Positions 2,753 to 47,885 are shown, counted from the stretch's first letter. The stretch is DNA of 64,000 bases from Lentisphaerota bacterium (GCA_024225035.1 JAAEMX010000211.1:22658-86657); one strand, 5' to 3'. Notes: a model not told the origin generated them from the letters alone. A program made the numbers and translations.

Positions 2753-3049
2753 TTAAATTTCAAATACTTCTTGTATTTTATTACTTATTTCAATGACTGC
2801 GTCACGGACAGGGCAGTGGGCCGATTCGATCAGGTTGCAGCTGTTAGTTATTGCTACTCCAACATCTTCATCAAAAGGGACTTCACCAATTACCGGCACA
2901 TTAAGAACTTTACATTTTTCTTTTATTGTTTCCGTTTCTTTCAGGTTAATATCGTATTTATTGATGACCACTCCTGCGTTGATGCCAAAGTGTTTTGTCA
3001 GCTTTAAAGCCCTAAGCATATCATGAGTACCTGACAAGCTCAGTAACAA
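2753..3049 (-). CDS. C-terminal fragment of a MinD/CooC-like ATPase, separated from its N-terminal part by a frameshift near 3041
   Basis: The HFGINAGVVINKYD..PVIGEVPFDE segment aligns to the C-terminus (HMDIPTGIVINRSG..IPILSKI) of the intact paralogue at 3787-4554. The ORF begins with TTG and sits in a different frame from 3021-3749. Confidence 0.5.
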   Translation of the reverse strand: MLLSLSGTHDMLRALKLTKHFGINAGVVINKYDINLKETETIKEKCKVLNVPVIGEVPFDEDVGVAITNSCNLIESAHCPVRDAVIEISNKIQEVFEI

Positions 3050-3749
3050 TTAAGGCTACTCGACAGCCTGTAACTGATGCAATAACAGGACAGCCTGTTC
3101 CGGGAGGTCCATCGCCAATGACTTTAGACACGTGTTCAGTTATGGCCATGTTTAATGCCTGATTTCTGACTTGTGTCACCAACTTGCCTGAATTTTCCTC
3201 TCCAATGTTCAGAAATGCGTGTGCCAACTTTCCATATTTGCTTTCGGCAGTATAAACAAAACCGGTATTTCCGGGATTCATTTTTATTGCATCATATGGA
3301 CACACCAGTTTGCAAAGACCGCAGCCTTCACAGGCGCTTTCAATTACTTCGAAATAGCCGTTTGAACCAAGTTTTATGGCTCCAAATCGGCAAAGGGAAG
3401 CACTTTTTCCACATTTTATACATTTATCCTTTACTATCTCAGCCTTAGCGCCGGAAGTAAAAAGTCTTGAAGTAAGCGGTTCGCTTTTTAAAAGAATTGG
3501 TAAATTTGAAGCATCAACATCTGCATCAAAAAATACTGAACCGGGACGCATAGCGGCAAGGGCTGCAGTTAAAGTTGTCTTACCAGTCCCCCCTTTCCCG
3601 CTTATTATAACAATCTCATTTTTGACTTTGTGCTCATTAACGCTTACCGGTGTTGAAATGTAATCGACTTTTTCTAATTTGCCCGAAATAAATTTTGACT
3701 TTTGTCCTGATTCTTTCAAATCAATAATTTTATCAGCAAGCTCTTTCAT
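3021..3749 (-). CDS. MinD/ParA-family P-loop ATPase with inserted 2x[4Fe-4S] ferredoxin domain (N-terminal part; frameshifted gene)
   Basis: Walker A motif ISGKGGTGKTT, then CIKCGKSASLC..CEGCGLCKLVCP ferredoxin motifs, then DGPPGTGCPV. Start reassigned to Met (MKELADK) at 3749 to avoid overlapping the upstream paralogue. The reading frame stops where the paralogue continues. Confidence 0.7.
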   Translation of the reverse strand: MKELADKIIDLKESGQKSKFISGKLEKVDYISTPVSVNEHKVKNEIVIISGKGGTGKTTLTAALAAMRPGSVFFDADVDASNLPILLKSEPLTSRLFTSGAKAEIVKDKCIKCGKSASLCRFGAIKLGSNGYFEVIESACEGCGLCKLVCPYDAIKMNPGNTGFVYTAESKYGKLAHAFLNIGEENSGKLVTQVRNQALNMAITEHVSKVIGDGPPGTGCPVIASVTGCRVALIVTELVRYS

Positions 3750-3786
3750 TACACCAGCTATTTCCGGGTGAGCTTCAGCAAGAAAA

Positions 3787-4554
3787 TCACCTTTTGAATA
3801 GCTTACAGCGTATTTTTGACAGAATTGGAATGTTTGCCTCTGCAGCAAAATCTTCAATGATTTTATCATTTTTACCGGAACGGTTGATTACAATTCCAGT
3901 CGGGATATCCATGTGAGAACTGAGTTGTGCTGCGAGTTTCAAGTCATTCAATCCGAACGGTGTGGGTTCTGTAACCAGCAAGGTGATACTTGCATTAGTC
4001 AGTGTTTCACGTACGGCGCAACCGCACCCCGGTGAAGCATCGAGAATGTTAATGTGATTATCATTCAGCTCTTTTCGAAGATCCTTGATTATATCAGGTG
4101 CTTGTACTTGCCCAATATCAAGTTCACCCCATGAAAGTTTGAATGGTAAACCTACATTGACCTTATGGATTGAACCAATGCGGACATCATGACTGTTTAT
4201 GGCTTTTTGCGGGCAGACATATGAGCAAGCGCCACAAGCATGACACATTTCTTCAAAAACCAACGGTTTGCCACCAATAACAGTTACAGCATTATAGTTG
4301 CAAACTTTGGCGCATTTTCCGCAACCATCGCAACCATCGCTGTTGAATTTTGGTTTTGGTAGACAAACTGGGGTATTTGAAGCCAGCCTCGTATCCAGAA
4401 AGAGGTGATCATTGGGAGCTTCGACATCACAGTCTACTAAATGAACTTTTCGATCATTATTTTGACTCAAAGTCCAAGCTAAATTAACGGCCACAGTTGT
4501 TTTACCAGTACCGCCTTTTCCACTTGCAATACAGATTTGCATGACTACATCCAA
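3787..4554 (-). CDS. MinD/ParA-family P-loop ATPase with inserted 2x[4Fe-4S] ferredoxin domain (intact)
   Basis: Walker A motif IASGKGGTGKTT, then CDGCGKCAKVC and CHACGACSYVCP motifs, and a MinD-type C-terminus. This is the classic partner of NifX-like proteins in anaerobes. Confidence 0.85.
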   Translation of the reverse strand: MDVVMQICIASGKGGTGKTTVAVNLAWTLSQNNDRKVHLVDCDVEAPNDHLFLDTRLASNTPVCLPKPKFNSDGCDGCGKCAKVCNYNAVTVIGGKPLVFEEMCHACGACSYVCPQKAINSHDVRIGSIHKVNVGLPFKLSWGELDIGQVQAPDIIKDLRKELNDNHINILDASPGCGCAVRETLTNASITLLVTEPTPFGLNDLKLAAQLSSHMDIPTGIVINRSGKNDKIIEDFAAEANIPILSKIRCKLFKR

Positions 4555-5798: not shown

Positions 5799-6791
5799 TT
5801 AAGAGAATAACTTTGAGGATACATCCACAGGAGTAACAACCCCAACCGGACTTCCTGATCTGTCCCGAACTGCTAAAAGTCTACAGTTAAGTTTTTGAGC
5901 AGTGGCAATCACATCCGGTATATCTTCACTTTCCTGTAAGGAGTAAAGCTGTTTCATGCAGTCTTCGACTTTGGTTATATTCCATTCACTTTCATCTAAA
6001 GAGAAAATTGCTTTGTAAATACTGAAAACACCAACCCAGTTCAGCTGTTTTATATCTTCAGGAATTTCGCGTCTGGCTCTAACGGGGAGTCGTGAAACAT
6101 CGTGCTTTCTGCACAGTTCCGCAGCTTCTTTAACGGTTGCTCTGGCAGGTATCATAATAACCTTTTCAACAGGTGTAAGTATATCACTTACCCTCAGGTT
6201 ATAGAAATCCAAAGACCGGTCAAGAATATCAGCCGCTTCATTGTCGATAACTCCTTCATTTTCGCTGTCACGAATCAATACACGAAAATCTTCGCGCATA
6301 AGAAGTGAAGTTTTGTCTGTGTTTTCATCAGGCTTGAAAATTCGGAGGCATAAACTTGTAATAGAAGCCATGACCCATGATGCCGGGTACAGCACAAAAT
6401 ATACTACCATCAGAAGCGGCGCAAAGAACAGGCAGCGATTCTCAGGATCCTCTCTGAACCAATTCTTAGGAAGTATTTCCGGTATCAGCATTACTAATGG
6501 CAGTATACAGGAAATGAGTATAGTTCCTATATATTCAGGCATCCCGGCATAGATTACAAAACGCTTGGCGAAGACTGAAGCTGAGGTAAGGCAAATATTA
6601 GTGCCCACCAGCATTGTTGCCAGCATGAACCCAGGCCGTTTCAATACGTAATCTATAAACAGGGCTCGTTTGCTTCCCTTTCTTATATGAGTCATTATAC
6701 GCGGTTTTTGACAAGAGATAAGGCCGATTTCGTTACCTGTAAAGAATGCCATCAGTGTTAGTGTTATGATAAGAAGTATGAGGTATGTCAT
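5799..6791 (-). CDS. CNNM/DUF21 + CBS-pair family membrane protein (HlyC/CorC-type transporter)
   Basis: N-terminal DUF21 motif (FFTGNEIGLIS..LVGTNICLTSASVFA) and tandem CBS domains. It overlaps the upstream paralogue by 4 nt. Confidence 0.8.
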   Translation of the reverse strand: MTYLILLIITLTLMAFFTGNEIGLISCQKPRIMTHIRKGSKRALFIDYVLKRPGFMLATMLVGTNICLTSASVFAKRFVIYAGMPEYIGTILISCILPLVMLIPEILPKNWFREDPENRCLFFAPLLMVVYFVLYPASWVMASITSLCLRIFKPDENTDKTSLLMREDFRVLIRDSENEGVIDNEAADILDRSLDFYNLRVSDILTPVEKVIMIPARATVKEAAELCRKHDVSRLPVRARREIPEDIKQLNWVGVFSIYKAIFSLDESEWNITKVEDCMKQLYSLQESEDIPDVIATAQKLNCRLLAVRDRSGSPVGVVTPVDVSSKLFS

Positions 6792-8086
6792 GCTGTCCCC
6801 TCACTAGCTTCGACTGGTGGCTGATGTGGTAACTTTTTAACTCTTATTTTTATCACTCTTCGTCTGGAAATAGCTTCAGCATGCATAATTATTCCATCAA
6901 CGTTTGCTTCATCTCCTGCAACAGGTATCTTGCCTGCAAGTTCGCAAAAGAGGCCGTTTACAGTACTTGATTCAAATTCTTCTGGAATTTCAATCTTTAA
7001 AGTTTCCTCAAGAGCAAACAGCGGCATCATACCTTGAACCAGCCATTCATTTTTATCTGTTTTCTCTATACTGTATTCAGGTTGATTGTACACTGTTTCG
7101 ACATCCCCTGTGAGTTGAGCATATATTTCTTTCAGTGAAATCAATCCGGTTGTCCGTCCGTACTCATCCACCACGAGAGCTGCGGATATATTTTTAGACC
7201 GCATGGTATTGAGCGCCAAAGTCAGGTTTGAGTTAGCAGGTATGAACTCAGTGTTAAACGAACATGTTTTGTCCCATGCTTGACGCTCATCAACAGAATT
7301 CAGGAAAAACTTTTTTGCAGACAATAGACACTCGGTGTCATCAATATCTTTGTTTATTACCGGGTAAAATTCACGTTTTTCTTCCCGTATGATTTTGCCA
7401 ACTTCTTCAGGTGACATTGTCTTATTCACATTAACCAGGTCAATACGGCAGGTCATTATTTCTTCAGCCGTAATCTCACGTAATTGAAAAGCTGATTCAA
7501 GAAGTGCGAGTTCTTTTCGCGTAAAAGCCCCGACAGAAGCCGACATTTCCAGATAAGAAGAATATTCCTCAGGAGTGAGGGCCTCGTGTGTTTTGCGTCC
7601 TATTAAATTAAGAATTATATTAAAAAACTTGTCAGTAACCCAGATTATCGGGAACAGCAGTTTTCTGAGGTATAATATTGGCAATGCGATTTTTTCAGAG
7701 ATTGGTTCAGCATAGATTAGGGCAATTGTTTTTGGTGCTATTTCACCAAATATCAGCAATACAACTACTGAAAAAGAAATCGTAATTACTTTTTGTAAAA
7801 TTGGGCTAAAGTTTTTAAAAGAAGCAAAGATAGCATCATTTGATAATGTTAACCCGGTATTAACAAGTATATTACCGAAGACAATACCAATCAGAGTAAA
7901 CTGATAAGTCTTCATGAGTTTCACAATGGCCTGCCGCTGCTTTGATGCATCAGATTTATAACTTAATAGACGCGCTCTGCTTAGTGAAAAAAGTGCAGTT
8001 TCCGAACATGAGAAAATAGCGGAAAGGGTGATGCACACAAAAAGCAGGATGAAGTTTATGTAGTTCTCTGCCAGGAAATTCAACAT
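6788..8086 (-). CDS. CNNM/DUF21 + CBS + CorC_HlyC family protein (putative Mg2+/Co2+ efflux)
   Basis: DUF21 motif (IFSCSETALFSL), a CBS pair and a C-terminal CorC_HlyC transporter-associated domain. Start moved to MLNFLAENY (8086), which has a GGAGGG Shine-Dalgarno 7 nt upstream. Confidence 0.8.
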   Translation of the reverse strand: MLNFLAENYINFILLFVCITLSAIFSCSETALFSLSRARLLSYKSDASKQRQAIVKLMKTYQFTLIGIVFGNILVNTGLTLSNDAIFASFKNFSPILQKVITISFSVVVLLIFGEIAPKTIALIYAEPISEKIALPILYLRKLLFPIIWVTDKFFNIILNLIGRKTHEALTPEEYSSYLEMSASVGAFTRKELALLESAFQLREITAEEIMTCRIDLVNVNKTMSPEEVGKIIREEKREFYPVINKDIDDTECLLSAKKFFLNSVDERQAWDKTCSFNTEFIPANSNLTLALNTMRSKNISAALVVDEYGRTTGLISLKEIYAQLTGDVETVYNQPEYSIEKTDKNEWLVQGMMPLFALEETLKIEIPEEFESSTVNGLFCELAGKIPVAGDEANVDGIIMHAEAISRRRVIKIRVKKLPHQPPVEASEGTA

Positions 8087-8383
8087 GTGAACCCTCCACG
8101 GCATAAAAAGCACAATATTCCTTTTGCAACTGGGACTAAAACGATAGACGAGTTATTAATAGACCAGGGGTCTGGTGGTTCGTCGCTGCCTAAGTCAGGC
8201 GTTTCTTCTTTCATGGTTTTTAAAAATATCTCCATTTTGTTTAAAGATTGTTGTAATATAATTCATAATTATATAAAACGCAAATATAAATACTCTCTCC
8301 TCAGTAACTTATTTTGGTTGCTTTTAAGAATATTGAGAATTATAATATGCAATTCTATATATAAATAATAACAATTTAAAAAT

Positions 8384-10887: not shown

Positions 10888-11012
10888 TTATTTTCCCTTT
10901 TTTGAGTGATTTGCTCTATTTATCTAATTTTTACTATTGATTTTATTTTGTATTGTTGTATGCTTTAATAGATATAAAAATATAAATATATCCATATAAT
11001 GGTTTATTTAAT

Positions 11013-11270
11013 ATGTCGAAACCTGAAATAGTAATTTGTCTGGGAAGTTCCTGCTCCGCACGTGGCAATGAACGCAATCTTGAAATGATTGAGAATTATC
11101 TGCAGAATAATGGATTGCAAGATAGTGTTGACGTTGATTTTAACTGTTCATTATGTCAGGGAAAATGTAGTGAAGGACCTAATATTTTCGTTGATGGTAA
11201 ACTTTACAATCATGTTGATGAAGGCGTGACCAGAGAAATACTAATGAAAATATTACCTGTTACAAAATAA
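11013..11270 (+). CDS. thioredoxin-like [2Fe-2S] ferredoxin (NuoE/HymA-like small subunit)
   Basis: 85 aa with a C-x4-C (CLGSSC) ... C-x3-C (CQGKC) spacing typical of NuoE-fold 2Fe-2S proteins. It immediately precedes a hydrogenase-like gene. Confidence 0.6.
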   Translation: MSKPEIVICLGSSCSARGNERNLEMIENYLQNNGLQDSVDVDFNCSLCQGKCSEGPNIFVDGKLYNHVDEGVTREILMKILPVTK

Positions 11271-11284
11271 TGCCTGAGGATTAG

Positions 11285-12175
11285 GTGATGAATCATAATT
11301 ACCCGGTATTTACTGTAGCAAATGAATGTCAGGACTGTTGCAAATGTGTCCGTCATTGTCCATCCAAAGCTATCAGAGTTGTAGATGGCAGGGCCAGTGT
11401 AATGCCGGAATTGTGTGTCGCTTGTGGCCTTTGTGTCAAAATCTGTCCTGCTGGCGCTAAGCGCATTCGTGATGATTTGTCCAGAGCGAACTATTTACTT
11501 AATGAAAAAGAGAGAGTGTTTCTTTCATTGGCCCCAAGTTGGAAAAGTTATTTTAAGGGGCTTAAATGCGAGCAGTTAGTAAGTGCTGTGAAAAAGCTAG
11601 GCTTTGCAGGGGTGAGCGAGACCGCTCTAGGAGCTGAGCTAGTGAGCGCTGTTTCCGGCCAGATACTTAACAGGAATAACCCCGGATTATACATCTCTTC
11701 GGCCTGTCCGGCTGCTGTTGATTTTATCCGTAAGTATTTGCCTGAATGTACTGCCGCAATCACTCCGGTATTGTCACCACTTTTGACGCATGCCAAAATG
11801 CTGCGTCAGCACTATGGTGATGATATTGGAGTGGTCTTTGCAGGGCCCTGCGCCGCAAAAAAACAGGAAGCTGATCGTTATCCAGAGCTGGCTAATGTAG
11901 CATTAACTTTTGAAGATATAGAACACTGGTTTATCAGAGAGAGAGTTTTCCCACACAGGGAAAGAGGGAAGGCTAGGTTCGTACCATACTCTGCCGTGGA
12001 GGGTAGAGTGTATCCGCTGGAAGGCGGCATGATTGAAACCTTACGCGAGCGAGACCGGGATGACAGTAAGTATTTTATTACTGTCACTGGTCTCAGCAAT
12101 ATTGAACGGACTTTAAGTTGTGCGGTTTCTGATTATAATGATATGCAAGCCTGGCTTGTGAAGGCGGTTGTGTAA
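11285..12175 (+). CDS. sensory-type (HydS-like, group C) [FeFe]-hydrogenase homolog, N-terminal part (gene interrupted by a frameshift near 12140-12150)
   Basis: Two 4Fe-4S motifs (CQDCCKCVRHCP, CVACGLCVKICP), then H-domain motifs SSACPAA (L1, with the first Cys of TSCCP replaced) and GPCAAKKQE (L2). The L3 motif continues in another frame. Confidence 0.7.
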   Translation: MMNHNYPVFTVANECQDCCKCVRHCPSKAIRVVDGRASVMPELCVACGLCVKICPAGAKRIRDDLSRANYLLNEKERVFLSLAPSWKSYFKGLKCEQLVSAVKKLGFAGVSETALGAELVSAVSGQILNRNNPGLYISSACPAAVDFIRKYLPECTAAITPVLSPLLTHAKMLRQHYGDDIGVVFAGPCAAKKQEADRYPELANVALTFEDIEHWFIRERVFPHRERGKARFVPYSAVEGRVYPLEGGMIETLRERDRDDSKYFITVTGLSNIERTLSCAVSDYNDMQAWLVKAVV

Positions 12176-13020
12176 ATGGTCCCGGCATGAGAGATACTGG
12201 CGGAACCATTGCTGATTTAGTTGCAACTTGTAGTGATGCTGCACGTGAAAGCAGCTTAAAGCGTGTTGTTGATATCGATTTAAAAGAGAGTTTGAAGCCT
12301 GAAAAAATTTATTATAAGAAACTTAGCGAGGGAAAAGTTAATAACGCTTTGGACTCGGTTGGCAAAGTGTCCGTAGAGGATGAATTGAATTGCGGCGGGT
12401 GTGGTTATGGAACCTGCAGAGATTTTGCGAGAGCTATGCTTGAGGGTAAAGCGGAGGCCGCTATGTGCCTGTCATATCTAAGAAAACTGGCTCAGCGTAA
12501 GAGTAATGCTTTAATTAAATATATTCCTGCCGGCGTGGTTATTGCTGACAGAAACTTAAATATCATAGAGTGCAACCAGAATTTTAGTCGACTTTTTGAT
12601 GAAAGCACCAGATTGGCATTTGAGGCTGTGCCGGGATTGAGTGGAGTTAATTTAAAGAAAATTGTTGATTTTTATGATCTTTTTGAGGCTGCATTGGCTT
12701 CCGGGAAAGACGTGTGCCGTGATAATTACCTAAGTGGTGACCACATCCTGAATATCAGTGTTTTTACAATAGAAAAACATCGCACTATAGGAGCAATTGT
12801 TCAGGATGTGACACAGGCGGAAATACATCGTGAACATATTTCAGAAATGGCACAGGAGGTTATCCGCAAAAACGTGAACACTATTCAGAAAATGGCCAAA
12901 TATCTGGGTGAACACATGGCAGATACAGAAATACTGCTGCGTGAAGTCGCCAGCGGATACAAATCTAACACTAAACGCAGGGAGCTTGGCAATGATTTTA
13001 CTGGAAGAGACATTCATTGA
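12142..13020 (+). CDS. sensory [FeFe]-hydrogenase homolog, C-terminal part: H-cluster L3 motif, extra 4-Cys cluster and PAS domain
   Basis: This frame is open from 12142 and encodes KLACEGGCVNG (L3). It continues to CGGCGYGTC-x16-C (a Cx2Cx4Cx16C motif) and a PAS-like fold (IPAGVVIADRNLNIIECNQNF...). Confidence 0.65.
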   Translation, partial: YASLACEGGCVNGPGMRDTGGTIADLVATCSDAARESSLKRVVDIDLKESLKPEKIYYKKLSEGKVNNALDSVGKVSVEDELNCGGCGYGTCRDFARAMLEGKAEAAMCLSYLRKLAQRKSNALIKYIPAGVVIADRNLNIIECNQNFSRLFDESTRLAFEAVPGLSGVNLKKIVDFYDLFEAALASGKDVCRDNYLSGDHILNISVFTIEKHRTIGAIVQDVTQAEIHREHISEMAQEVIRKNVNTIQKMAKYLGEHMADTEILLREVASGYKSNTKRRELGNDFTGRDIH

Positions 13021-14176
13021 AATAGAGTGCTGCCAGCGCATCAAAACCGGCGAGTCTGTTTGTGGTGATGATTTTAGAAGTATCAGGCTGGATGATGAAA
13101 GCCGTTGCATCTCGGTATTATCAGATGGTTTAGGCAGCGGAATAAAGGATTCATTGATGGCCAGTATGACAACGTCAATGGTGCTGCGGTTTGTTTCCCG
13201 GGATATGGAGATAATCCCATCTGCTGAAATAATAATGGATACCTTGCCGGTTTGTGAGGTTAGAAAGATAAGTTATGCCACTTTTACTGTTGCCGATATA
13301 CTGGCAAATGACCGCGTCAGGATTATTGAAATGGATAACCCGCCTTATATACACTTGCGGGACGGTGAAGATGTTCAATGGGAAAAACAAACTGTTTTCT
13401 CTGCTGCATGGCCTGACCGCAAACTTAATTTATCAAAGTTTAAAGCTGTTCCGGGAGATAGAATTATATTCTTTTCTGATGGTGTAACCCAGGCAGGGCT
13501 CGGACATTCAATTGCCAAGTTTGGCTGGAAAAGGCAAGGATGTCTGGAGTTTGTGCAGAATATTATCAAACGTGAACCGAACATTTCGGCTCGTGATTTG
13601 TCACATTCTATTGTAGCACAAGCTTGTACAAAGAACCCTGGGTTTTCGTGTATTGACGATATTTCATGCACTGTAATATATTTTCGTAAGCCAAGGCACA
13701 TCCGACTGTTAACAGGGCCTCCTTTCAGAAATGATAAGGATCGTGACTTTGCCAAAACTGTTCTCGATTTTAATGGCAGGTCTGTGATTTGCGGTGGAAC
13801 AACTGCAGGAATAGTTGGCAGAGAGCTAAACCGTGAAGTAAGAACAGACCTCAGATTGCGGGGAGGGGGATTGCCACCAATATCTACAATGAAAGGTATT
13901 GACTTGGTTACTGAAGGCATTCTTACATTGACCGAAACAGACAGACAGCTTGAGTTGGATAACAGACAACAATCTGCTCCCTTAGCAGCAGCAAAGTTGA
14001 TTGAGTTGTTACAGGAAAGTGATGTTATCGAATTCATCGCAGGTACTAGAGTCAACGAAGCTCATCAGGATCCCAGCCTGCCTGTTGATTTGGAAATCAG
14101 GCGTAACATAATCAAGCGGCTCAAGACTGTGTTGGAAAATAAGTACATGAAAAAAGTAACTATCAAGTATTATTAA
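12992..14176 (+). CDS. PP2C/SpoIIE-family serine phosphatase
   Basis: SpoIIE-type motifs GESVCGDDF and LSDGLGSGIKDSLMAS, then FFSDGV. Start taken at MILLEETF, which overlaps the hydrogenase 3' end by about 29 nt. Confidence 0.7.
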   Translation: MILLEETFIEIECCQRIKTGESVCGDDFRSIRLDDESRCISVLSDGLGSGIKDSLMASMTTSMVLRFVSRDMEIIPSAEIIMDTLPVCEVRKISYATFTVADILANDRVRIIEMDNPPYIHLRDGEDVQWEKQTVFSAAWPDRKLNLSKFKAVPGDRIIFFSDGVTQAGLGHSIAKFGWKRQGCLEFVQNIIKREPNISARDLSHSIVAQACTKNPGFSCIDDISCTVIYFRKPRHIRLLTGPPFRNDKDRDFAKTVLDFNGRSVICGGTTAGIVGRELNREVRTDLRLRGGGLPPISTMKGIDLVTEGILTLTETDRQLELDNRQQSAPLAAAKLIELLQESDVIEFIAGTRVNEAHQDPSLPVDLEIRRNIIKRLKTVLENKYMKKVTIKYY

Positions 14177-14195
14177 AGATATACAGGATTTACTC

Positions 14196-14459
14196 ATGAC
14201 CAAGAAAAAAGTAAAGGTAGAGATATGTGTTGGGACAACCTGTTTTCTGCTTGGAGCATCTAAGCTTCAGGAAATGGAAAGGTTTCTTCCGCCGGATCTT
14301 ACCGGTAGAGTTGAAGTGCAGGGCACCGCATGTCTTGGATGCTGCAGAAATGACAACTTTGGCAGCGCTCCGTTCGTCAAGGTTGATGATACTGATGTTA
14401 TTGCTAATGCTACCCTTGAAAAAGTTATAAATAGAGTCAGACGCAGCCTGAACCTCTAA
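14196..14459 (+). CDS. thioredoxin-like [2Fe-2S] ferredoxin (NuoE/HymA-like)
   Basis: 87 aa with CVGTTC ... CLGCC motifs. It sits immediately upstream of the catalytic hydrogenase. Confidence 0.6.
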   Translation: MTKKKVKVEICVGTTCFLLGASKLQEMERFLPPDLTGRVEVQGTACLGCCRNDNFGSAPFVKVDDTDVIANATLEKVINRVRRSLNL

Positions 14460-14467
14460 GGAGATAA

Positions 14468-15919
14468 GTGATGATAATGAAAGTAGCCAATAACGCTGAA
14501 AGAATCAGGCGTGAGCTGCTGATAAGAATAATCCGCAACTTTATGCGTGGAACCCTTAAGGATGTTATTGACCGTATTGCGGTTGATATGCGTCCTCGCA
14601 AGGAAAGGCCTTCACGCTGTTGTGTTTATAAAGACAGAGCCGTTCTTAAATATAGAGTTATGGCAATGCTTGGGTTTGGTATTGAAGATGAAATAGATGA
14701 AGCAAAGGCATTGAGCAAATATCTGAAAGAGGCTACAGAACGACAAGCCCCGGACGATAATATATTGAGTGTATTAGACGTGGCATGTTCAGCATGTGTT
14801 GAAAGTCAGTACTTAGTAACTAATGCATGTCGTGGTTGTTTTGCCCGACCATGTACCTTCAATTGTCCTCGTGATGCAATTCAAGTTGTTGACGGGCAGG
14901 CACGGATTGACCATAGTTTGTGCATTGACTGTGGTAAATGTACAAAAGTCTGCCCATATCATGCAATTATACGAGTGCCAATTCCATGTGAAGAAGCATG
15001 TCCGGTAAACGCTATTAAGAAACGTTCTGACGGAACGCAGGTGATTAACTTTAAAAGCTGCATTTCCTGCGGTAAATGCATGCAGGCGTGTCCTTTTGGA
15101 GCAATTCTGGAGCGTTCCCAGATTATTGATGTACTTAACGCAATTAAAAAAGGTAAAAAAGTCGTGGCAATGGTCGCACCCTCTATTGTCGGTCAGTTTC
15201 CTGGAAAACTCGCGCAGATAGCTGAAGCCGTCAAGCTGGTTGGGTTTGAGCTTATGGAAGAAGTTGCTCATGGAGCTCAAATGACCACTGAGCACGAGAC
15301 TAAAGAGTTTTTTGAACATATGGAGCAGGGAGACCACATTATGACTTCTTCGTGCTGCCCGGCTTATGTTGAGACCGTCAAAAAACATGTACCTCTTTTG
15401 CAGCCATATGTTTCTGATACTCCGAGCCCAATGCGTTTTACTGCCAGAGTCGTTAAAGAGAAATATGGATGTGACTGTGTTAGTGTGTTTATCGGGCCCT
15501 GTGTTGCAAAGCGCAAGGAAGCGCAAAGGTCTCCAAAAGTTGACTACGTATTAACATTTGAAGAACTAGGTTCTTTCTTTGCGGCCATGAATATCGATGT
15601 TGCGTCTCTGAAAGGAATTAAACTTCCGAGAAAAGTAGAAGGTTACGCACGTGGATTTGCCAGTAGTTGCGGGGTGACCTCTGCAATGCTGAAAGAGTCT
15701 ACCAAGACTGTGGCAGACAGCAACTTGGATAATGACGCGAAGTTTATAAACGGACTTGACCAAAAAACAGTTAAACAACTTCATCTTTACGGTAAAGGCA
15801 AACTCCCGGGCAATTTCCTCGAAGTAATGGCTTGCGAAGGAGGCTGTGTTGGAGGTCCTTGCGTGCTGGGTGATGTTAAGCTTGCTACTCGCGCGGTAAA
15901 AGCATCAACGGAAGAATAA
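14468..15919 (+). CDS. [FeFe]-hydrogenase catalytic subunit (monomeric, Fe-S-rich N-terminus; group B-like)
   Basis: All three intact H-cluster motifs are present: TSSCCPAY (L1), GPCVAKRKE (L2) and MACEGGCVGGPC (L3). Two 4Fe-4S ferredoxin motifs and extra N-terminal Cys clusters are also present. Confidence 0.85.
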   Translation: MMIMKVANNAERIRRELLIRIIRNFMRGTLKDVIDRIAVDMRPRKERPSRCCVYKDRAVLKYRVMAMLGFGIEDEIDEAKALSKYLKEATERQAPDDNILSVLDVACSACVESQYLVTNACRGCFARPCTFNCPRDAIQVVDGQARIDHSLCIDCGKCTKVCPYHAIIRVPIPCEEACPVNAIKKRSDGTQVINFKSCISCGKCMQACPFGAILERSQIIDVLNAIKKGKKVVAMVAPSIVGQFPGKLAQIAEAVKLVGFELMEEVAHGAQMTTEHETKEFFEHMEQGDHIMTSSCCPAYVETVKKHVPLLQPYVSDTPSPMRFTARVVKEKYGCDCVSVFIGPCVAKRKEAQRSPKVDYVLTFEELGSFFAAMNIDVASLKGIKLPRKVEGYARGFASSCGVTSAMLKESTKTVADSNLDNDAKFINGLDQKTVKQLHLYGKGKLPGNFLEVMACEGGCVGGPCVLGDVKLATRAVKASTEE

Positions 15920-15969: not shown

Positions 15970-18900
15970 TTATTTCTTGTCAAAACGCTTTTCAACTGTG
16001 TAATAAACAGCAGGCAGCAAGAACAAAGTAAGAAGTGTTGAACTCGCAAGACCAACTACAACTATAGCTGCCAGCGGGCGTTGGATTTCAGCTCCGACTC
16101 CATGCGAAAGCAATAACGGAGCCAGACCGAAAAGGGTAGTCAGGGTTGTGAGTACAACTGGCCTAAACCTTATAACGCTGCCTTCGACTACCGCTTCGAG
16201 CAGAGGCTTCCCTTCTTCACGCAACTGATTGAAGTCAGTAACCATAACCACTGCATCCTGCATGGCTATACCAAACAGGGCAATAAAGCCCACAGATGCT
16301 GCAACTGAAAGGAATTGCCCGGTTAACAACAACCCGATAATTCCGCCTATCAATGCCAAAGGTACGTTCAGCATTACAATAAGCGCATGTCTGCCTGACC
16401 GGAAGGTTGCCCAAAGCAGGAAGAAAATTAACAGAATCACCAATGGCACAATTATTCCAAGCTTTTTCATTGCGCGCTGCTGATTCTCGAATTGTCCACC
16501 AAATTCAACAAAATATCCAGAAGGAAGTTTGACTGAACTGTCAAGCTTTTTCTTGATATCTTTTATGACATGGCTAAGAGCACGACCTGAAATATTGCCT
16601 TGAATTATCCAGCGACGATGGTTTTTCTCACGGTTAATCTGAACAGGCCCTTCAGTTACTTTGATTTTTGCAATCTGCCCCAGCATAATAGTGGCTCCGC
16701 TTTTGGTCTTTACCGGCAGCTGTTTCAGCATTTCAATATTAGACCTCCAGTCAGAAATAAAGCGAAAATTGATCGCGTATTTTCGGGTGTTTTTATACAT
16801 GAAATCAATATCGCCGCCGCCGACAGCAGTTTCTATCAACTGCATTACAGAAGCTCCTGAAATTCCAAAGCGAGCTGCTTTCGGTCGGTTCAGGATGATT
16901 TGTATTTGCGGTTGTCCGAAACTTTGTTCGGTTGCCAGGTCTACAATGCCGGGAATATCTTTTATAGCGTTACGAATTTCCTCAGATTTTTCACGCAAAA
17001 CAGTAAGGTCCTCGCCATATAGCTTAATTGCGAAAAATGCTTTAATACCTGAAAGCAGTTCGTCAAAGGAATTCTGAATCGGCTGTGAAAAGTTTATTTG
17101 AATCCCGGGATAAACCGATAGTTCTTTTCTTAACTTTTGCAGTAATTCATTCTTGTTTTTAAAGCCCTGCCATTGCTTATAAGGCTTGAGCTCAATATGA
17201 ACTTCAGCAAAATTTACCGGATGAGGGTGGCTGCCGGCTTCTGGACGACCTATTCTGGAAACGGTTTCCCGAACAGGCTGCTCTTTAATAATAATCTTTT
17301 CAAGCTTTTGCACTGTTGCTTTTGCTTCATCCAGGCTTATAGAAGGAGCCATGGTTACTCCAACAAGGATAGAACCTTCCTCCAGAACAGGCATAAACTC
17401 TTTGCCGATTCGTCCTAGAGCAATCACGCTTAATGTTACGGCTATGAGAACTGCAATATACATGAACCATCGCAGTTTTATCGCTATTTCAAGCATAGGT
17501 TTATAGTGCTTGCTGTCAAAGTTACGCATTAGCTGAAATCTCGTTTTAATACCCTTTTTAAGCATAAAACTACAGAGTACAGGCGCAATAACCGTTGCGG
17601 CCGCAATAGATCCCAGCAAAGCAAGGCATATTGAAAAAGCCATAGGCTTGAACAGCTTGCCTTCTACCCCGTGCAGAGTAAACAATGGCAAAAACACTGC
17701 GGTTATGATTAATAATGCAAATGCGATGGGACGTCCGACTTCATGAGCTGCTACGCCGATTAAACGCAGAACACTTTTATCTTTGTTTTCCGGATCTGAT
17801 AAGTAACGCATTATGTTTTCTGTAACCACAATGGAGCCATCTACCAGCATCCCCAGAGCAACGGCAATACCACCTAGTGACATAAGGTTTGAGGATATTC
17901 CCATCAGCTTCATTCCTACGAGAGCCAGTCCTGCACAGAACGGCATCGACATGGCGACGATCAAAGCTGAGCGTAAGTTACCTAGAAATAATGCCAGTAC
18001 AATAAGCACCAGAATACCACCTTGGAGGAGTGCGTTTTTAACTGTATCTGTGGCTTTCTGTACTAAATGAGATTGCTCATAATAAGGAACCAGTTTTACA
18101 CCGGCAGGCAAGGTCTTCTGTATTTGAGCAACTTTTTTATAAAGATCTGAAATTACTTTTGAGGTATTTTCTCCATACAGCTTCATGACTATTCCAGAGA
18201 CAATCTCCTCCTCGCCATTACGAGTTACTACCCCACGCCTGATGGCATTTCCGTATTCAACAGTTGCAATATCACCAACAGTTATAGGCGTGCCGCTGAA
18301 CTCCTTTACGGGCACCTTGCGCAGTCCGGCAAGGTTTTTTAGTAAACCTATACCACGCACGAGATATTCCTCCGATCCTAGAACTAAATACTGCCCGCCA
18401 ACATTACGGTTATTTTCGTTCACCGCTTCAATGACATCATCTATAGTAATGTCATACTTACGCATTTTATTGGGATCGGCATTTATGCGATATTGCAGCA
18501 CATGCCCCCCCATCGAAAGTACTGCCGTTACTCCGGGGACTGTCTGTAACTGATACTTGACTACAAAATCATTTAGCTCGCGCAAGTATGTGTTGACATC
18601 TTTGCCTTCTGTGTTTACTTTGCCGTCAGCTTTCAGATAATACATGAAAACTTGACCTAAGCCGCTGGAAATGGGGCCCAGTGCCGGCTTTTCTAAACCG
18701 GGAGGCAATTGAGCTGCAGCTGCATTTAACCTTTCGGCAACAAGTTGACGCGCAAAGTACATATCAACACTGTCTTTGAAGTAGACATATATAACAGCCA
18801 TTCCGAAAGCAGAAGTAGACTTGATTAAAGTTACATCAGGCAAGCCGTTCATTGCTGACTCAATAGGATAGGCTATTAGGCGTTCTACCTCTTCAGGGGC

Positions 18901-19068
18901 CAATCCCTGAGCCTCCGCAAAGACTGGTACCATTATCGGAGAAACATCCGGGAAAGCATCAACCGGCATTGTCTTATAGCAATATACTCCAGCGCCCAAT
19001 ACAGCAACAAGGAATATTATTGACAGCATTCGAAACTTCAATGCCATTTTTATTAATCTATCTATCAT
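15970..19068 (-). CDS. czcA: heavy-metal efflux RND transporter, CusA/CzcA family
   Basis: 1032 aa with 12-TM RND architecture and an N-terminus typical of the HME-RND family. Confidence 0.9.
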   Translation of the reverse strand: MIDRLIKMALKFRMLSIIFLVAVLGAGVYCYKTMPVDAFPDVSPIMVPVFAEAQGLAPEEVERLIAYPIESAMNGLPDVTLIKSTSAFGMAVIYVYFKDSVDMYFARQLVAERLNAAAAQLPPGLEKPALGPISSGLGQVFMYYLKADGKVNTEGKDVNTYLRELNDFVVKYQLQTVPGVTAVLSMGGHVLQYRINADPNKMRKYDITIDDVIEAVNENNRNVGGQYLVLGSEEYLVRGIGLLKNLAGLRKVPVKEFSGTPITVGDIATVEYGNAIRRGVVTRNGEEEIVSGIVMKLYGENTSKVISDLYKKVAQIQKTLPAGVKLVPYYEQSHLVQKATDTVKNALLQGGILVLIVLALFLGNLRSALIVAMSMPFCAGLALVGMKLMGISSNLMSLGGIAVALGMLVDGSIVVTENIMRYLSDPENKDKSVLRLIGVAAHEVGRPIAFALLIITAVFLPLFTLHGVEGKLFKPMAFSICLALLGSIAAATVIAPVLCSFMLKKGIKTRFQLMRNFDSKHYKPMLEIAIKLRWFMYIAVLIAVTLSVIALGRIGKEFMPVLEEGSILVGVTMAPSISLDEAKATVQKLEKIIIKEQPVRETVSRIGRPEAGSHPHPVNFAEVHIELKPYKQWQGFKNKNELLQKLRKELSVYPGIQINFSQPIQNSFDELLSGIKAFFAIKLYGEDLTVLREKSEEIRNAIKDIPGIVDLATEQSFGQPQIQIILNRPKAARFGISGASVMQLIETAVGGGDIDFMYKNTRKYAINFRFISDWRSNIEMLKQLPVKTKSGATIMLGQIAKIKVTEGPVQINREKNHRRWIIQGNISGRALSHVIKDIKKKLDSSVKLPSGYFVEFGGQFENQQRAMKKLGIIVPLVILLIFFLLWATFRSGRHALIVMLNVPLALIGGIIGLLLTGQFLSVAASVGFIALFGIAMQDAVVMVTDFNQLREEGKPLLEAVVEGSVIRFRPVVLTTLTTLFGLAPLLLSHGVGAEIQRPLAAIVVVGLASSTLLTLFLLPAVYYTVEKRFDKK

Positions 19069-19084
19069 TATTCACCTCTGCTAC

Positions 19085-20407
19085 TCAATGGCCGTGACCG
19101 GCGTGACTGTCAATTCCGCTGGTAACCATAATGGATTTCAAGACAAAAGCTCCTTTTGAAACATATTTATCTCCCGGCTTTAATCCTGAAACGATTTCAG
19201 TAAAACCTTTTCCAGTGTGTCCTATAGTTACTTGCTGCGGCAGAAACCCATCATCTTCGGGAACAAAAATCACTCTTTCTCCATCAATCATAAGTATTGC
19301 ATTGGAAGGAACAAGTACGGTTTGTCCCGCTGATGGAATTGTAACTTTGGCAGTAGCAAATAACCCAGGTTTTAGTATGCCTTTTTCATTTTTCAACAGC
19401 ACTCTTACCAGAACAGTTCTGGAAAGCGGGTTAGCTGTAGAGGAAATATAGAATATATTACCAGTGAAATCAGGAAAGCCAACACCGAGGTCAACTGTTA
19501 CTTTCAGTCCTTTTTTTATTTTAGGAAGGTCTTTTTGTGCCGCATCAAGATCCAGCCAGACAGTGCTTAAATCGACAACAGTAAAGGTTGATTTTGTATT
19601 GTCAGATGAAAAATTTTCACCGATAGTGAGGTTTTTATTGACAATAGTACCGGAAATTGGTGACTTCAAAGGATAAAGGGTACATATTTTCTCGCTTGCC
19701 GATATATTGCCGGGGGCAGGGCATTGCTGCGCAGTGATTTGTGGATAAAACCCAAGCGCCTTTAATTTATCCTCATAACGGTGACGGTTTACTTTTGCCT
19801 CGGCATATATTTGCCTTGCTTTTATATATTCAATTTCAGAAACAGCTCTTTTCATGACCAGATTTCGCTTCATATCGCAGTCTACTTTTGCCATTAATTC
19901 ATATTCTCTGGCATAGCGATAGTCAGCGTGCAGTTCTCCAAGCTCATGACTTTGAAGAACAGCAAGAGTTTCACCTTTCTTTACTTTATCGCCTACGCTT
20001 TTGTAAATGGCAGTAACAAAACCCGGCATTTGAGGCATGATTTCAGCAATACGGTTATTATTGAATTTAATGACTCCCGGCAACACAACACTGCTGTTAA
20101 TTGACCCTTTTTCTGCAATAGATACTTTGAAGCCTGTAATTTTACGTTGCTCTGACGATAAATGAATAAGCCCTTCCTCCTGGTGTTCGGCCTCCTTGTC
20201 AGTACTCTGCGCAGGCGGGGGCGGGGTAGGATGATTATGATTATGTCCTTTATGAGCTTCGTCATTCTGGTGAGCACTGTGATCAACGTCTTGAGAATGA
20301 TCGTGTTGCAAAGTGCATTGTTGCGATGTTTTTTCTGTGTTTTGCTGTGCACCGAATACTACGGTGGCTGCCGCTGCTATAAACAGCGTCAGGAATGTCC
20401 TTTTCAT
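19085..20407 (-). CDS. czcB: RND efflux periplasmic adaptor (membrane fusion protein), CzcB/CusB-like, with His-rich termini
   Basis: Signal peptide, a His-rich N-terminal stretch (HDHSQDVDHSAHQNDEAHKGHNHNH) and a C-terminal HAGHGH. The barrel-sandwich/beta-barrel membrane-fusion-protein core is present. Immediately upstream of czcA. Confidence 0.85.
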   Translation of the reverse strand: MKRTFLTLFIAAAATVVFGAQQNTEKTSQQCTLQHDHSQDVDHSAHQNDEAHKGHNHNHPTPPPPAQSTDKEAEHQEEGLIHLSSEQRKITGFKVSIAEKGSINSSVVLPGVIKFNNNRIAEIMPQMPGFVTAIYKSVGDKVKKGETLAVLQSHELGELHADYRYAREYELMAKVDCDMKRNLVMKRAVSEIEYIKARQIYAEAKVNRHRYEDKLKALGFYPQITAQQCPAPGNISASEKICTLYPLKSPISGTIVNKNLTIGENFSSDNTKSTFTVVDLSTVWLDLDAAQKDLPKIKKGLKVTVDLGVGFPDFTGNIFYISSTANPLSRTVLVRVLLKNEKGILKPGLFATAKVTIPSAGQTVLVPSNAILMIDGERVIFVPEDDGFLPQQVTIGHTGKGFTEIVSGLKPGDKYVSKGAFVLKSIMVTSGIDSHAGHGH

Positions 20408-35515: not shown

Positions 35516-36697
35516 ATGCAGCTTAGAAATTTTAGGCTCATTATTTCAGCAAGCGAGGCTATGAGATATTTTTGTAGAAAATGTCACGAATTCACCGAGA
35601 GAGATCAGGACAAATGTTGCACTAACTGTGGAGCATCCCTGGTAGATGCACCTATGGCTCCCGGAACTGATATAGGTGGTTTTGAAATTATAACGGAAAT
35701 CGGACGCGGAGCAAATGGAGTTGTCTATCTTGCCAAACAACTAACCCTTGAGCGTGATGTCGCATTAAAAGTATTGCCGGAACAGCGTGCTAATGATCCA
35801 GAATTTGTTAAAAACTTCCTGAAGGAAGCCAGAGCCGCGGCAAAACTCAATCACCCTAATATTGTACAGGCATATGATGCAGGAGTGAGCAGCCTTGGAA
35901 CATATTTCTTTGCAATGGAATACATTAGCGGTCGCACTCTGGACGAAAATCTCAAAGAGAATGGCCCACTGAAAGTTGCCCAAGCTATTAATATTGCTTT
36001 GAAGGTGGCTGAAGCACTTGATTATGCCTGGGAGAAACAGCGGTTATTCCACGGTGATATAAAACCAGACAATATTATTATGCGTAATGATGGCGATGTC
36101 AAACTGGCAGACTTGGGGCTTGCTGCAACCATTTTTGAAGAAAAATCAGAAGAAGTAATGGCAACTCCCATGTATGCTCCTCCTGAGGTTATCAGAGGCG
36201 AACATGATAAATTTGGCTGTAAAACTGATATGTACTCTTTTGGCGCAAGTCTTTATGAATTGTTTTCCGGGGAGCCGCCGCACAATGAATATGACTGCGG
36301 TAAAGTGTTGGAAATGCATTTACATGAAGCTCATATGCCATTAAAGGAAAAATTGACTGGGTTTCCGCAAAATGCTTCTGATTTAGTTGATTCTTTACTA
36401 GCTAAAAATCCTGATGAAAGACCCGATAGCTGGAAAGAAGTCATTGAACAATTGCAAGAAATTCAAGAAGCGGGCGCTGAAAAATCAAAGTCAGGTCACA
36501 ACAATTTTAAGAAAATAATCTTTTTTATTTTACCGGCACTGATTATTTTGTCAGGAATAGTTTTTTATTACTTAAAAGAGTCAAAGAAGAATGACGTTCC
36601 GGCTATTATTACAGCCACTTTAGATGAAGAACTGCATGGACAGAAAAGCACAGGTTCTCCAAAAAGTAAAATTTTTGATGTGAACAAAACAGCTTAA
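35516..36697 (+). CDS. Ser/Thr protein kinase with N-terminal Zn-ribbon and C-terminal TM anchor
   Basis: Hanks kinase motifs HGDIKPDNIIM, DLGLA and APPE. N-terminal CRKCHEF..CCTNCG. Single TM helix near the C-terminus. The start codon is ambiguous (35516 or 35561). Confidence 0.8.
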   Translation: MQLRNFRLIISASEAMRYFCRKCHEFTERDQDKCCTNCGASLVDAPMAPGTDIGGFEIITEIGRGANGVVYLAKQLTLERDVALKVLPEQRANDPEFVKNFLKEARAAAKLNHPNIVQAYDAGVSSLGTYFFAMEYISGRTLDENLKENGPLKVAQAINIALKVAEALDYAWEKQRLFHGDIKPDNIIMRNDGDVKLADLGLAATIFEEKSEEVMATPMYAPPEVIRGEHDKFGCKTDMYSFGASLYELFSGEPPHNEYDCGKVLEMHLHEAHMPLKEKLTGFPQNASDLVDSLLAKNPDERPDSWKEVIEQLQEIQEAGAEKSKSGHNNFKKIIFFILPALIILSGIVFYYLKESKKNDVPAIITATLDEELHGQKSTGSPKSKIFDVNKTA

Positions 36698-36701
36698 TCC
36701 C

Positions 36702-39247: not shown

Positions 39248-39781
39248 TTATCTTTGGTAAAGATCATTTCCTTCTGAATCTATAGCGACAATCAAAGGCA
39301 TATTTTCAACTTCAAGTCGATGTATGGCTTCAGGACCGAGATCATCATAACAAACAACCTCACATGACTTAATGCAACGCGCAATTAAGGCAGCAGCACC
39401 GCCTGTTGCAGCAAAATATACACAACCATACTTTTTCATGGTGTCAATCACCTCAGGACTGCGTCCGCCTTTTCCAATCATCGCCCGTAATCCAGTGCTG
39501 GCTATAACAGTTGGAGAATAGGCATCCATGCGATAACTGGTAGTAGGGCCGGCACTGCCAATTGGTTGCCCTGGCTTTGCGGGGCATGGGCCGACAAAAT
39601 ATATTGTCTGACCATTGAGATCTACTGGCAGCTCTTTACCTGCTTCTATAAGGTCACATAAGCGTTTATGAGCAGCATCACGACCAGTGTATATAACGCC
39701 AGAAAGCAAAACTTGATCGCCTGCTTTCAATTTTCTTACGGTATTTTCGTCAAATGGGGTACTTAAACTAACTAAACTCAT
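39248..39781 (-). CDS. class I (Fe-S) fumarate/tartrate hydro-lyase, beta subunit (C-terminal-domain type); mesaconase candidate
   Basis: TtdB/FumA-C motifs (GPCPAKPGQPIGSAGPTTSYRMD, VYFAATGGAAALIA). Last gene of the glutamate mutase operon. Confidence 0.85.
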   Translation of the reverse strand: MSLVSLSTPFDENTVRKLKAGDQVLLSGVIYTGRDAAHKRLCDLIEAGKELPVDLNGQTIYFVGPCPAKPGQPIGSAGPTTSYRMDAYSPTVIASTGLRAMIGKGGRSPEVIDTMKKYGCVYFAATGGAAALIARCIKSCEVVCYDDLGPEAIHRLEVENMPLIVAIDSEGNDLYQR

Positions 39782-39790
39782 TGCGTTTCC

Positions 39791-40696: not shown

Positions 40697-40705
40697 TATA
40701 TTTGT

Positions 40706-41653: not shown

Positions 41654-41655
41654 AT

Positions 41656-41973
41656 TTATACCTCTAGTTCAAGTTTAAGCAATGGCGCGTGCTGTTGAGC
41701 CCCGTAAACGTCAGTGTCACCGGGTGCGCCTGAAGCCACAGGGCGATCCATGACCGCCTTAATAGCTCTTGCAACATCAAAGTAGATAACTTTTTTTACT
41801 TTATCCAACGGAATTCCATAGGCTTCCGCAATGACTTCTTTATTGATGGCATTGGCATCCTTGATAGCTTGGAAGTCAGCTTCATCTTTAATGATGATAT
41901 CCATTGTCAATTCAAAAGGACTGCAGTTCTTGGAACGAATCACCGTTGCCGCGTCAATTAATTTCATTTTCAT
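41656..41973 (-). CDS. DUF4387-like small protein (AtuA C-terminal-domain-like)
   Basis: 105 aa, immediately downstream of the DUF1446 gene, as in split AtuA-like pairs. Confidence 0.5.
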   Translation of the reverse strand: MKMKLIDAATVIRSKNCSPFELTMDIIIKDEADFQAIKDANAINKEVIAEAYGIPLDKVKKVIYFDVARAIKAVMDRPVASGAPGDTDVYGAQQHAPLLKLELEV

Positions 41974-41990
41974 AGCAGGTGCCCCCCTTA

Positions 41991-47859: not shown

Positions 47860-47885
47860 TCAAACCCGTTACAGTGTAACGCTCC

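Follow-up and report, generated by a model that had tools for sequence, protein, structure and literature searches.

A putative phosphatase-linked, group C-like sensory hydrogenase module with a frameshifted sensor gene in a Lentisphaerae metagenome-assembled genome

How do fermentative bacteria sense H2, and how do they switch between H2 and other sinks? This is still unsettled, and in the group C/hfs systems it is the output step that is the missing piece. The question is raised again by an operon at positions 11,013 to 15,919 of a 64,000-nucleotide (nt) stretch of DNA from a Lentisphaerota bacterium (GCA_024225035.1, JAAEMX010000211.1:22658-86657). The whole 64-kb stretch is called the window below. 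A preliminary description of the operon had read it as an H2 sensor (a HydS-type [FeFe] hydrogenase) and a phosphatase that together control a catalytic hydrogenase. Two points have to be settled here: whether the locus encodes such a module, and whether its sensor gene can still yield the protein.

With regard to the first point, this operon of a Lentisphaerae metagenome-assembled genome (MAG) probably encodes a phosphatase-linked group C/hfs-type 'sensory' module, placed ahead of a group B ferredoxin-dependent, H2-evolving hydrogenase. The assignment is supported by domain scans, alignment with CpI, structure prediction and synteny. The module is not new: its type has been described before and occurs widely, namely as the phosphatase-linked group C sensory hydrogenases and the hfsABCD operon. 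With regard to the second point, the sensor gene of this assembly is broken: either the sequence was wrongly assembled here, or the gene became a null allele very recently. Taken as a whole, the motifs of the preliminary description stand, whereas its continuous sensor gene and its absence of a kinase do not.

The sensor, the phosphatase and the hydrogenase

The sensor protein starts with two CxxCxxCxxxCP [4Fe-4S] motifs, followed by an H-domain with the cluster motifs L1 to L3 and by an additional Cx2Cx4Cx16C cluster motif. All of these had been named earlier (L1 as SSACPAA in place of TSCCP, with the ligand Cys kept; L2 as GPCAAKKQE; L3 as ACEGGC), and all of them were located (Table 1). The comparison with CpI was made with the repaired protein (for the frameshift, see below). 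In this alignment SSACP lies opposite TSCCP of CpI, meaning that Cys299 has been replaced by Ala while the ligand Cys300 is kept. Likewise, GPCAAKK is aligned with MPCTSKK (Met353 to Gly) and LACEGGC with MACHGGC (Met497 to Leu). The relay glutamates E279 and E282 looked unconserved on inspection of the same alignment. SSACP is found in nearly all close homologues of the sensor, and the four cysteines of the Cx2Cx4Cx16C motif are invariant across the sensor family in the homologue alignment.

A common Cx2Cx4Cx16C cluster is present in both group C (M2f) and group D (M2e) enzymes, which are told apart by the PAS domain that follows it in group C (PMC8163306, PMC13104023). The Pfam profile PAS_8 matched the sensor with 19.8 bits, below its threshold of 21.8. 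The fold was nevertheless seen in the structure prediction. An AlphaFold model of the second open reading frame (ORF) of the sensor, ORF-B, was built on 55 homologues (pLDDT 85) and shows a beta-beta-alpha-alpha-alpha-beta-beta-beta PAS fold that spans residues 116-207; a helix of about 57 residues comes after it. In the Foldseek search against the PDB, the top matches to ORF-B were all PAS/LOV proteins, among them YF1 (4gcz, E 8.5e-6), the PAS domain of ThkA (3a0s, TMt 0.73), YtvA, PYP and NifL. The preliminary description had staked its case on a replaced TSCCP motif and on a PAS domain behind the H-domain; the CpI alignment and the fold search bore out both.

Among the closest known systems are the TmHydS-type group C enzymes. 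TmHydS combines low activity and a PAS domain with Ala and Gly at the altered positions (PMC10055695, PMC8163306); Ala131, Gly177 and Ser267 occupy the positions of Cys299, Met353 and Met497 of CpI (PMC10055695). Group C enzymes of this type begin with two [4Fe-4S] motifs, continue with an H-domain that has every cluster cysteine, then with the Cx2Cx4Cx16C motif and the PAS domain, and are encoded next to a catalytic hydrogenase, as in the window. A131 and G177 of TmHydS correspond to the window's Ala at CpI-Cys299 and Gly at CpI-Met353. At CpI-Met497, in contrast, the window has Leu instead of Ser. This is the state of TamHydS, the group D enzyme of Thermoanaerobacter mathranii, in which Ser replaces Met353 and Leu replaces Met497 (PMC8163306). 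TamHydS also shares the loss of the proton-relay Cys and the Cx2Cx4Cx16C motif with the sensor of the window. Group D enzymes, however, lack the PAS domain and carry Ser/Thr at Met353, whereas the window shows the PAS fold and Gly, which places its sensor outside group D.

The traits of group C that were found are the loss of the proton-relay Cys299, the Cx2Cx4Cx16C motif and the PAS fold after the cluster. The H-cluster cysteines of L1 to L3 are all encoded as well (SSACP, GPC, LACEGGC), with L3 in another frame; the ligand set is complete in one protein only if the lesion described below is an artefact. By its motifs and predicted PAS fold, the sensor protein is group C-like. From the known group C members it differs in its Lentisphaerae host and in its gene, which is frameshifted here and lacks the strand before L3. 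A phosphatase gene next to the sensor, the trait of HydDB group C3, is also found (an overlapping SpoIIE/PP2C gene), and a pairing of C3 with group B has been reported for Vallitalea (PMC6163223).

The gene after the sensor does encode a SpoIIE/PP2C Ser phosphatase, as had been proposed; Pfam, fold and metal motifs agree. The PP2C domain comprises residues 1-232. Its metal-binding motifs (GDDF, SDGLGSG, FSDG and DDIS) are all invariant across 50 homologues, and judged by these motifs the PP2C domain is catalytically complete. Among its best structural matches are SpoIIE and the RsbU domain of Rv1364c. With the SpoIIE/RsbU phosphatases it shares the PP2C fold and all metal motifs. It differs from them in having no STAS/RsbW-type partner (in the window and at 80 related loci) and in possessing a conserved C-terminal domain of its own. 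This alpha/beta domain (residues 235-394, 13694-14173, about 160 amino acids (aa)) is highly conserved, with the motifs CGGTTA, EGILTLT and NEAHQDP. No Pfam family was matched by it, and its structural matches were generic Rossmann-like folds only. It is an uncharacterised domain specific to the sensor-linked phosphatases.

The downstream enzyme is 483 aa long when read from a GTG codon (480 aa as called). The claim that its catalytic motifs are complete was borne out: TSSCCP, GPC and MACEGGC are all in place. TIGR04105 is matched with 517 bits (cut-off 450) over protein residues 8-467 and model positions 3-459 of 462. By profile and motifs the enzyme is a group B monomeric [FeFe] hydrogenase, and it also carries two [4Fe-4S] motifs. 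Group B enzymes are ferredoxin-linked H2 producers (PMC12578642).

A possible source of reduced ferredoxin is encoded elsewhere in the window. A complete-looking cluster for glutamate fermentation by the methylaspartate pathway lies at 39248-48896 (- strand). It encodes a GntR regulator, the B12-binding MutS subunit, MutL, MutE and methylaspartate ammonia-lyase, together with AtuA-like and DUF4387 proteins, a 315-aa ORF without Pfam match and a two-subunit class I fumarate hydratase (a possible mesaconase). This pathway would supply reduced ferredoxin for a group B hydrogenase to dispose of.

By description, the logic and the order of these genes match those of hfsABCD from Thermoanaerobacterium saccharolyticum and T. 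thermosaccharolyticum and of hydS-hydA2 from Ruminococcus albus. The hfs order is a small gene, the PAS-hydrogenase HfsB/HydS, the Ser phosphatase HfsC and the ferredoxin-linked HfsD/HydA2, and the genes in the window are likewise co-directional. There are also differences. HfsA is described as unlike known proteins, whereas the first gene of the window encodes a clear thioredoxin-like [2Fe-2S] protein. Unlike hfsABCD, the window has an extra small [2Fe-2S] gene before the enzyme. Finally, an adjacent Ser/Thr kinase has been reported for R. albus (PMC5707799), whereas none is adjacent in the window. The genetics of hfs point to a role in regulation that is linked with adhE and rex: deletion of hfsA or hfsB raises adhE expression, deletion of hfsB alone raises hydrogenase activity, and the deletion phenotype requires hfsC and hfsD (PMC5707799, PMC11837493).

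The module occurs commonly among Lentisphaerota and further PVC bacteria, gut Victivallis included, and group B enzymes are now viewed as major H2 producers of the gut. More than 6000 sensor homologues were found, and the best 120 of these were used for protein comparison. These 120 are mainly from Lentisphaerota/Victivallales and Planctomycetes and are all single polypeptides of 561-590 aa. Synteny was analysed in 80 species-representative genomes (loci L011-L090), with gene counts by tblastn. The sensor is intact at all 80 loci, and the PP2C gene lies directly 3' of it at 76 of them. A small ferredoxin-like gene directly precedes the sensor at 62 loci or more. The arrangement of the window, with a small gene and a group B enzyme downstream, recurs at 32 of the 80 loci; at 13 a trimeric NuoE/NuoF/HydA-type set is found instead, and about 14 lack a hydrogenase for at least 3 kb downstream. 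Upstream and in the same orientation, 19 loci have a Rex repressor gene (by neighbour clustering, confirmed with Pfam) and 13 an AdhE-like gene (by neighbour clustering). These recurrent Rex and AdhE neighbours fit with the hfs genetics.

The start of the phosphatase gene overlaps the end of the sensor gene by 29 nt in the window, and an overlap of 4-14 nt between sensor stop and phosphatase start is present in all four relatives examined. The overlap suggests translational coupling and a stoichiometric complex of sensor and phosphatase.

Two sensor-phosphatase modules occur in some Victivallales genomes (L018 and L006 on the 5.6-Mb contig CAXXSX010000002.1; L029 and L057 on CAXXKX010000003.1). 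Of the two copies on CAXXKX010000003.1, one is followed by a group B enzyme and the other by a trimeric hydrogenase. Such duplicated modules suggest a separate sensor for each H2-producing enzyme.

The interrupted sensor gene

The sensor had been described as one gene at 11285-13020. It is in fact divided over two ORFs in different frames, ORF-A and ORF-B (Table 1). L1 and L2 are read in the frame of ORF-A, which ends with "...DYNDMQAWLVKAVV" and whose final eight codons (AWLVKAVV) are out of frame. From L3 onward the protein is encoded only in the -1 frame. The frame of ORF-B is open from 12142, and L3 lies upstream of its called ATG. Scanning with single-base insertions confines the frame shift to 12142-12156. 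The last codon that is consistent with the family is Gln at 12146-12148; a stray GC follows (12149-12150), and then comes the Leu of LACEGGC.

Alignment with the closest homologues reveals what is missing. The homologues read "...DM-K-IFIEC-LACEGGC...", whereas the window reads "...DM-Q-[GC]-LACEGGC". From the Met codon to the Leu codon there are 18 nt in the homologues (L003, L005-L008) and 5 nt in the window, a net deficit of 13 nt relative to every homologue compared. The lesion drops five residues, (I/L/V)F(I/V)E(C), which include the invariant F and E before L3 and correspond to the strand FIEV of CpI. The pattern F-[IVL]-E-x precedes L3 in all 61 sensors that were captured by regular expression among the 80 loci, and in the 120 protein homologues the conservation of this strand is 95 % or higher. 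A slip of a single base was considered and is ruled out by the five missing conserved residues, which make up the 13-nt deficit. With the frame broken and a conserved core strand deleted, the DNA as written cannot encode the sensor that was described earlier.

Is this lesion a feature of the organism or of the assembly? There is about an even chance that the gap is an assembly or consensus artefact, in which case the organism would possess an unbroken sensor of 581 aa and a working circuit. Apart from the lesion the sensor shows no decay. Its two halves agree with 151 of 154 highly conserved columns, and the three exceptions are one conservative L to I change and two of the deleted residues. 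The window also has frameshifts in at least one more gene, possibly in two, which is typical of indel-prone consensus sequences, and a split PP2C gene is present in another MAG. In addition, the missing bases would be AT-rich and of low complexity by analogy with the homologues (AAA ATY TTT ATT GAA T). Some points speak against an artefact. Thirteen nucleotides are much for a consensus error, and there is no homopolymer slip. Three broken genes among about 58 ORFs are also not far above ordinary pseudogene rates. Finally, the gap is present in the deposited assembly, and no independent copy of the junction was found.

The records bearing on that last point are few. An identical sequence is found in contig JAAELS010000011.1 (GCA_024226475.1), where the lesion is also present and the annotation splits the sensor into two genes (295 aa and 277 aa). 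In a record search ORF-B gave no entry, and the ORF-A and phosphatase sequences occurred on that one contig only. For the phosphatase, a match of 100 % identity carries the label "MAG: ... [Lentisphaerae bacterium]". A second assembly, GCA_024449895.1, is of the same organism and contains an identical 565-bp contig (L002), but this ends about 650 nt before the lesion. The junction pattern was searched for in a metagenome contig collection and not found. The repaired sensor gave no match in the genome contig collection, which does not cover this species, and no paper describing the assembly was found in the literature.

A real deletion is a serious contender, if short of an even chance. The sensor would then be a recent loss-of-function allele, leaving the phosphatase and the group B hydrogenase unregulated. 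Through the lesion, the strand leading up to the L3 cysteines loses its invariant F and E and the frame shifts; a protein with this lesion would very probably fail to bind the H-cluster, as judged from the conserved residues it lacks. The genes downstream of the sensor are intact. There is also precedent: spontaneous loss-of-function mutations in hfsB are documented, and selectable, in Thermoanaerobacterium (PMC5707799), and they shift the fermentation balance without a growth defect (PMC5707799, PMC11837493). Set against this, the sensor is intact in all of the related genomes and in all 120 listed homologues, which makes its loss uncommon. A state with a single lesion is equally compatible with an artefact, and there is further indel noise on the contig.

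It is very improbable that the two ORFs are expressed as they stand, whether by a programmed -1 frameshift or as a functional split protein whose ORF-B part would act on the phosphatase by itself. ORF-B does have its own ATG, is predicted with confidence to fold (FeS motif, PAS domain and helix) and overlaps the start of the phosphatase gene. Yet there is no slippery heptamer at 12140-12160, the shifted product would still lack the five conserved residues, and ORF-A alone lacks the L3 cysteines. No split homologue is present among the 120 listed proteins and the 80 loci. The missing slippery site and the residues that are absent regardless make programmed frameshifting as such very unlikely. 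Being frameshifted, the sensor gene of this record is unsafe as a template unless the reads are checked.

Other interrupted genes were encountered in the course of the analysis. An FGGY/glycerol-kinase gene at 62378-63891 (- strand) is split in two ORFs, one matching FGGY_N at positions 1-155 and the other matching positions 157-245 and FGGY_C. Between about 63.33 and 63.39 kb its frame switches within an A7 homopolymer (TTGAAAAAAACC). A gene for a ParA/CbiA protein with a 4Fe-4S ferredoxin domain (3021-3869, - strand) is probably continued in another frame as an ORF at 2753-3049, with a junction near 3030 ('...ALIVTE', then 'LSGTHDM...'). The reading frames suggest a loss of 2 or 5 nt and a possible third broken gene in the window. 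Its neighbours are a second ParA-Fer4 gene, a gene for a dinitrogenase FeMo-cofactor-binding-like protein and one for a DUF134 protein. In an unrelated MAG (L046, CASERY010000096.1) the phosphatase gene just downstream of the sensor is apparently split into ORFs of 129 and 250 aa, an instance of frameshifting in a MAG copy of this module.

Signal, output and partners of the module

For the intact module a chain of events can be proposed. The HydS-like protein would bind an H-cluster, as its ligand cysteines are conserved while the catalytic proton relay is lost. This loss may slow down H2 turnover, allowing the protein to report H2 pressure or redox state. The signal would pass from the C-terminal [4Fe-4S] motif to the PAS domain and on to the long output helix. 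The output could then modulate the PP2C phosphatase, which is encoded by the overlapping gene. Dephosphorylation of some phosphoprotein would finally change how electrons are divided between the group B enzyme, which forms H2, and sinks like AdhE (the AdhE/Rex regulon). The two small [2Fe-2S] proteins are probably dedicated electron carriers, one for the sensor and one for the enzyme.

Several points weigh against such an H2-sensing circuit. In the literature, H2 sensing by group C and its control of the phosphatase are still 'putative' (PMC8163306, PMC13104023, PMC12578642), and group C enzymes are "thought to differentially regulate" hydrogenases (PMC12578642). The C-terminal cluster of TamHydS, a group D enzyme, is unresponsive to H2 (PMC13104023). 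In the 80 genomes, the surroundings of the module hold no conserved substrate, kinase or STAS partner. The loci without a nearby downstream hydrogenase imply that the adjacent enzyme need not be the target. Moreover, the sensor ORF is broken here, so that the circuit may be inoperative in this organism.

What the sensor responds to can be read differently. The HydS-like protein could be a hydrogenase that catalyses slowly, or it could sense the ferredoxin/NADH redox pool through its small [2Fe-2S] partner, with the PP2C phosphatase answering to redox state and not to H2. TmHydS and TamHydS keep measurable reversible H2 turnover (PMC8163306, PMC10055695). A dedicated [2Fe-2S] gene is almost always located just upstream of the sensor, and Rex, a frequent neighbour, is itself an NADH/NAD+ sensor. 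The family, however, keeps the full set of H-cluster ligands and yet loses the proton relay, a combination not easily reconciled with a pure redox sensor; ligands kept and relay lost is the pattern of regulatory hydrogenases (PMC8163306). This alternative reading is unlikely.

As for partners of the phosphatase, the preliminary description had seen no kinase, STAS or anti-sigma gene in the window. With regard to STAS and RsbW-type proteins this is correct. A search of the 64 kb found no gene for STAS, RsbW-type/HATPase_c_2, histidine kinase, Rex or AdhE proteins. A Hanks-type Ser/Thr kinase (393 aa) is encoded at 35516-36697, about 20 kb from the module, and is the sole protein kinase in the window. 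Its gene is followed, 4 nt further on, by an 847-aa ORF without Pfam match (35516-39245 for the pair, + strand). Nothing ties this kinase to the operon. The combination typical of partner switching (PP2C, STAS and an RsbW/SpoIIAB-type kinase) was found neither in the window nor in the 80 neighbourhoods, where clustering of the remaining neighbours revealed no conserved kinase or STAS gene.

A more speculative idea, and a rather doubtful one, is that the module is a self-contained post-translational switch instead of a partner-switching or transcriptional system. The H2-loaded sensor would direct the PP2C phosphatase by way of the C-terminal domain of the latter. The idea is based on the lack of a conserved kinase or STAS gene, the conserved C-terminal domain of the phosphatase and the frequent AdhE/Rex neighbours. 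If it is true, the targets would be a metabolic enzyme or a product of the operon, e.g. the hydrogenase, a [2Fe-2S] carrier or AdhE, phosphorylated by one of many Hanks-type kinases, and the broken allele would represent a natural 'sensor-off' state.

The comparative data narrow the search for the phosphatase substrate through the gene overlap, the conserved C-terminal domain, the lack of a linked kinase or STAS gene, and the Rex/AdhE neighbours. The locus alone makes this question no more testable than many intact homologues do.

Layout and surroundings of the operon

By ORF listing and translation, a 125-nt leader is followed by five tightly packed genes that all point the same way (Table 1), with intergenic distances of 14, -29, 19 and 8 nt. 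A NuoE-like 2Fe-2S protein had been proposed before each hydrogenase, and both small genes indeed score above the PF01257 cut-off. The first of the two proteins has Cys at residues 9, 14, 45, 48 and 52, and its matches to the NuoE/HoxE family in the NCBIfam scan are weak. Scans for a consensus promoter and terminator around the operon were uninformative, and the search for a Rex operator upstream of the operon gave no match above chance.

Table 1. Positions of the operon's genes, domains and motifs in the window.
Feature	Position	Strand	Evidence
AT-rich 125-nt leader, presumed promoter region	10888..11012	+	sequence
Small thioredoxin-like [2Fe-2S] protein, 85 aa	11013..11270	+	PF01257, 36.1 bits (cut-off 24.8)
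Sensor ORF-A (two [4Fe-4S] motifs, H-domain through L1 and L2)	11285..12175	+	
Two CxxCxxCxxxCP [4Fe-4S] motifs	11327-11362, 11414-11449	+	motif search
L1, SSACPAA	11696-11716	+	
L2, GPCAAKKQE	11843-11869	+	
Lesion site in sensor	12146..12153	+	protein alignment, codon-level comparison
L3, LACEGGC	12151-12171	+	
Sensor ORF-B (L3, Cx2Cx4Cx16C, PAS, long C-terminal helix)	12187..13020	+	PF04060, AlphaFold, Foldseek
Cx2Cx4Cx16C cluster motif, CGGCGYGTCRDFARAMLEGKAEAAMC	12391-12468	+	PF04060 at 9.8e-10
Predicted PAS domain	~12532-12807		AlphaFold
Predicted C-terminal helix	~12811-12981		AlphaFold
SpoIIE/PP2C Ser/Thr phosphatase, 394 aa	12992..14176	+	Pfam
Second small thioredoxin-like [2Fe-2S] protein, 87 aa	14196..14459	+	PF01257, 26.9 bits (cut-off 24.8)
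Group B monomeric [FeFe] hydrogenase	14468..15919	+	TIGR04105, PF02906 (1.2e-56), motifs
Catalytic motif TSSCCP	15344-15361	+	
Catalytic motif GPCVAKRKE	15494-15520	+	
Catalytic motif MACEGGC	15827-15847	+	

The operon is flanked by a Sir2-family gene upstream and by a convergent CusA/CusB-like RND efflux pair downstream. The latter (15970-20407, - strand) consists of a CusA/AcrB-type pump of 1032 aa and a CusB/HlyD-type fusion protein of 440 aa. The fusion protein has His-rich stretches at both its N- and C-terminus (HDHSQDVDHSAHQNDEAHKGHNHNH ... HAGHGH), which suggest that the predicted function of the pair is metal efflux. Further upstream in the window, two adjacent CNNM/CorC-type transporter genes are located at 5799-8113 (- strand). 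The downstream copy (330 aa) is without the CorC_HlyC domain that is present in the upstream copy (441 aa), and may be a shorter paralogue or truncated.

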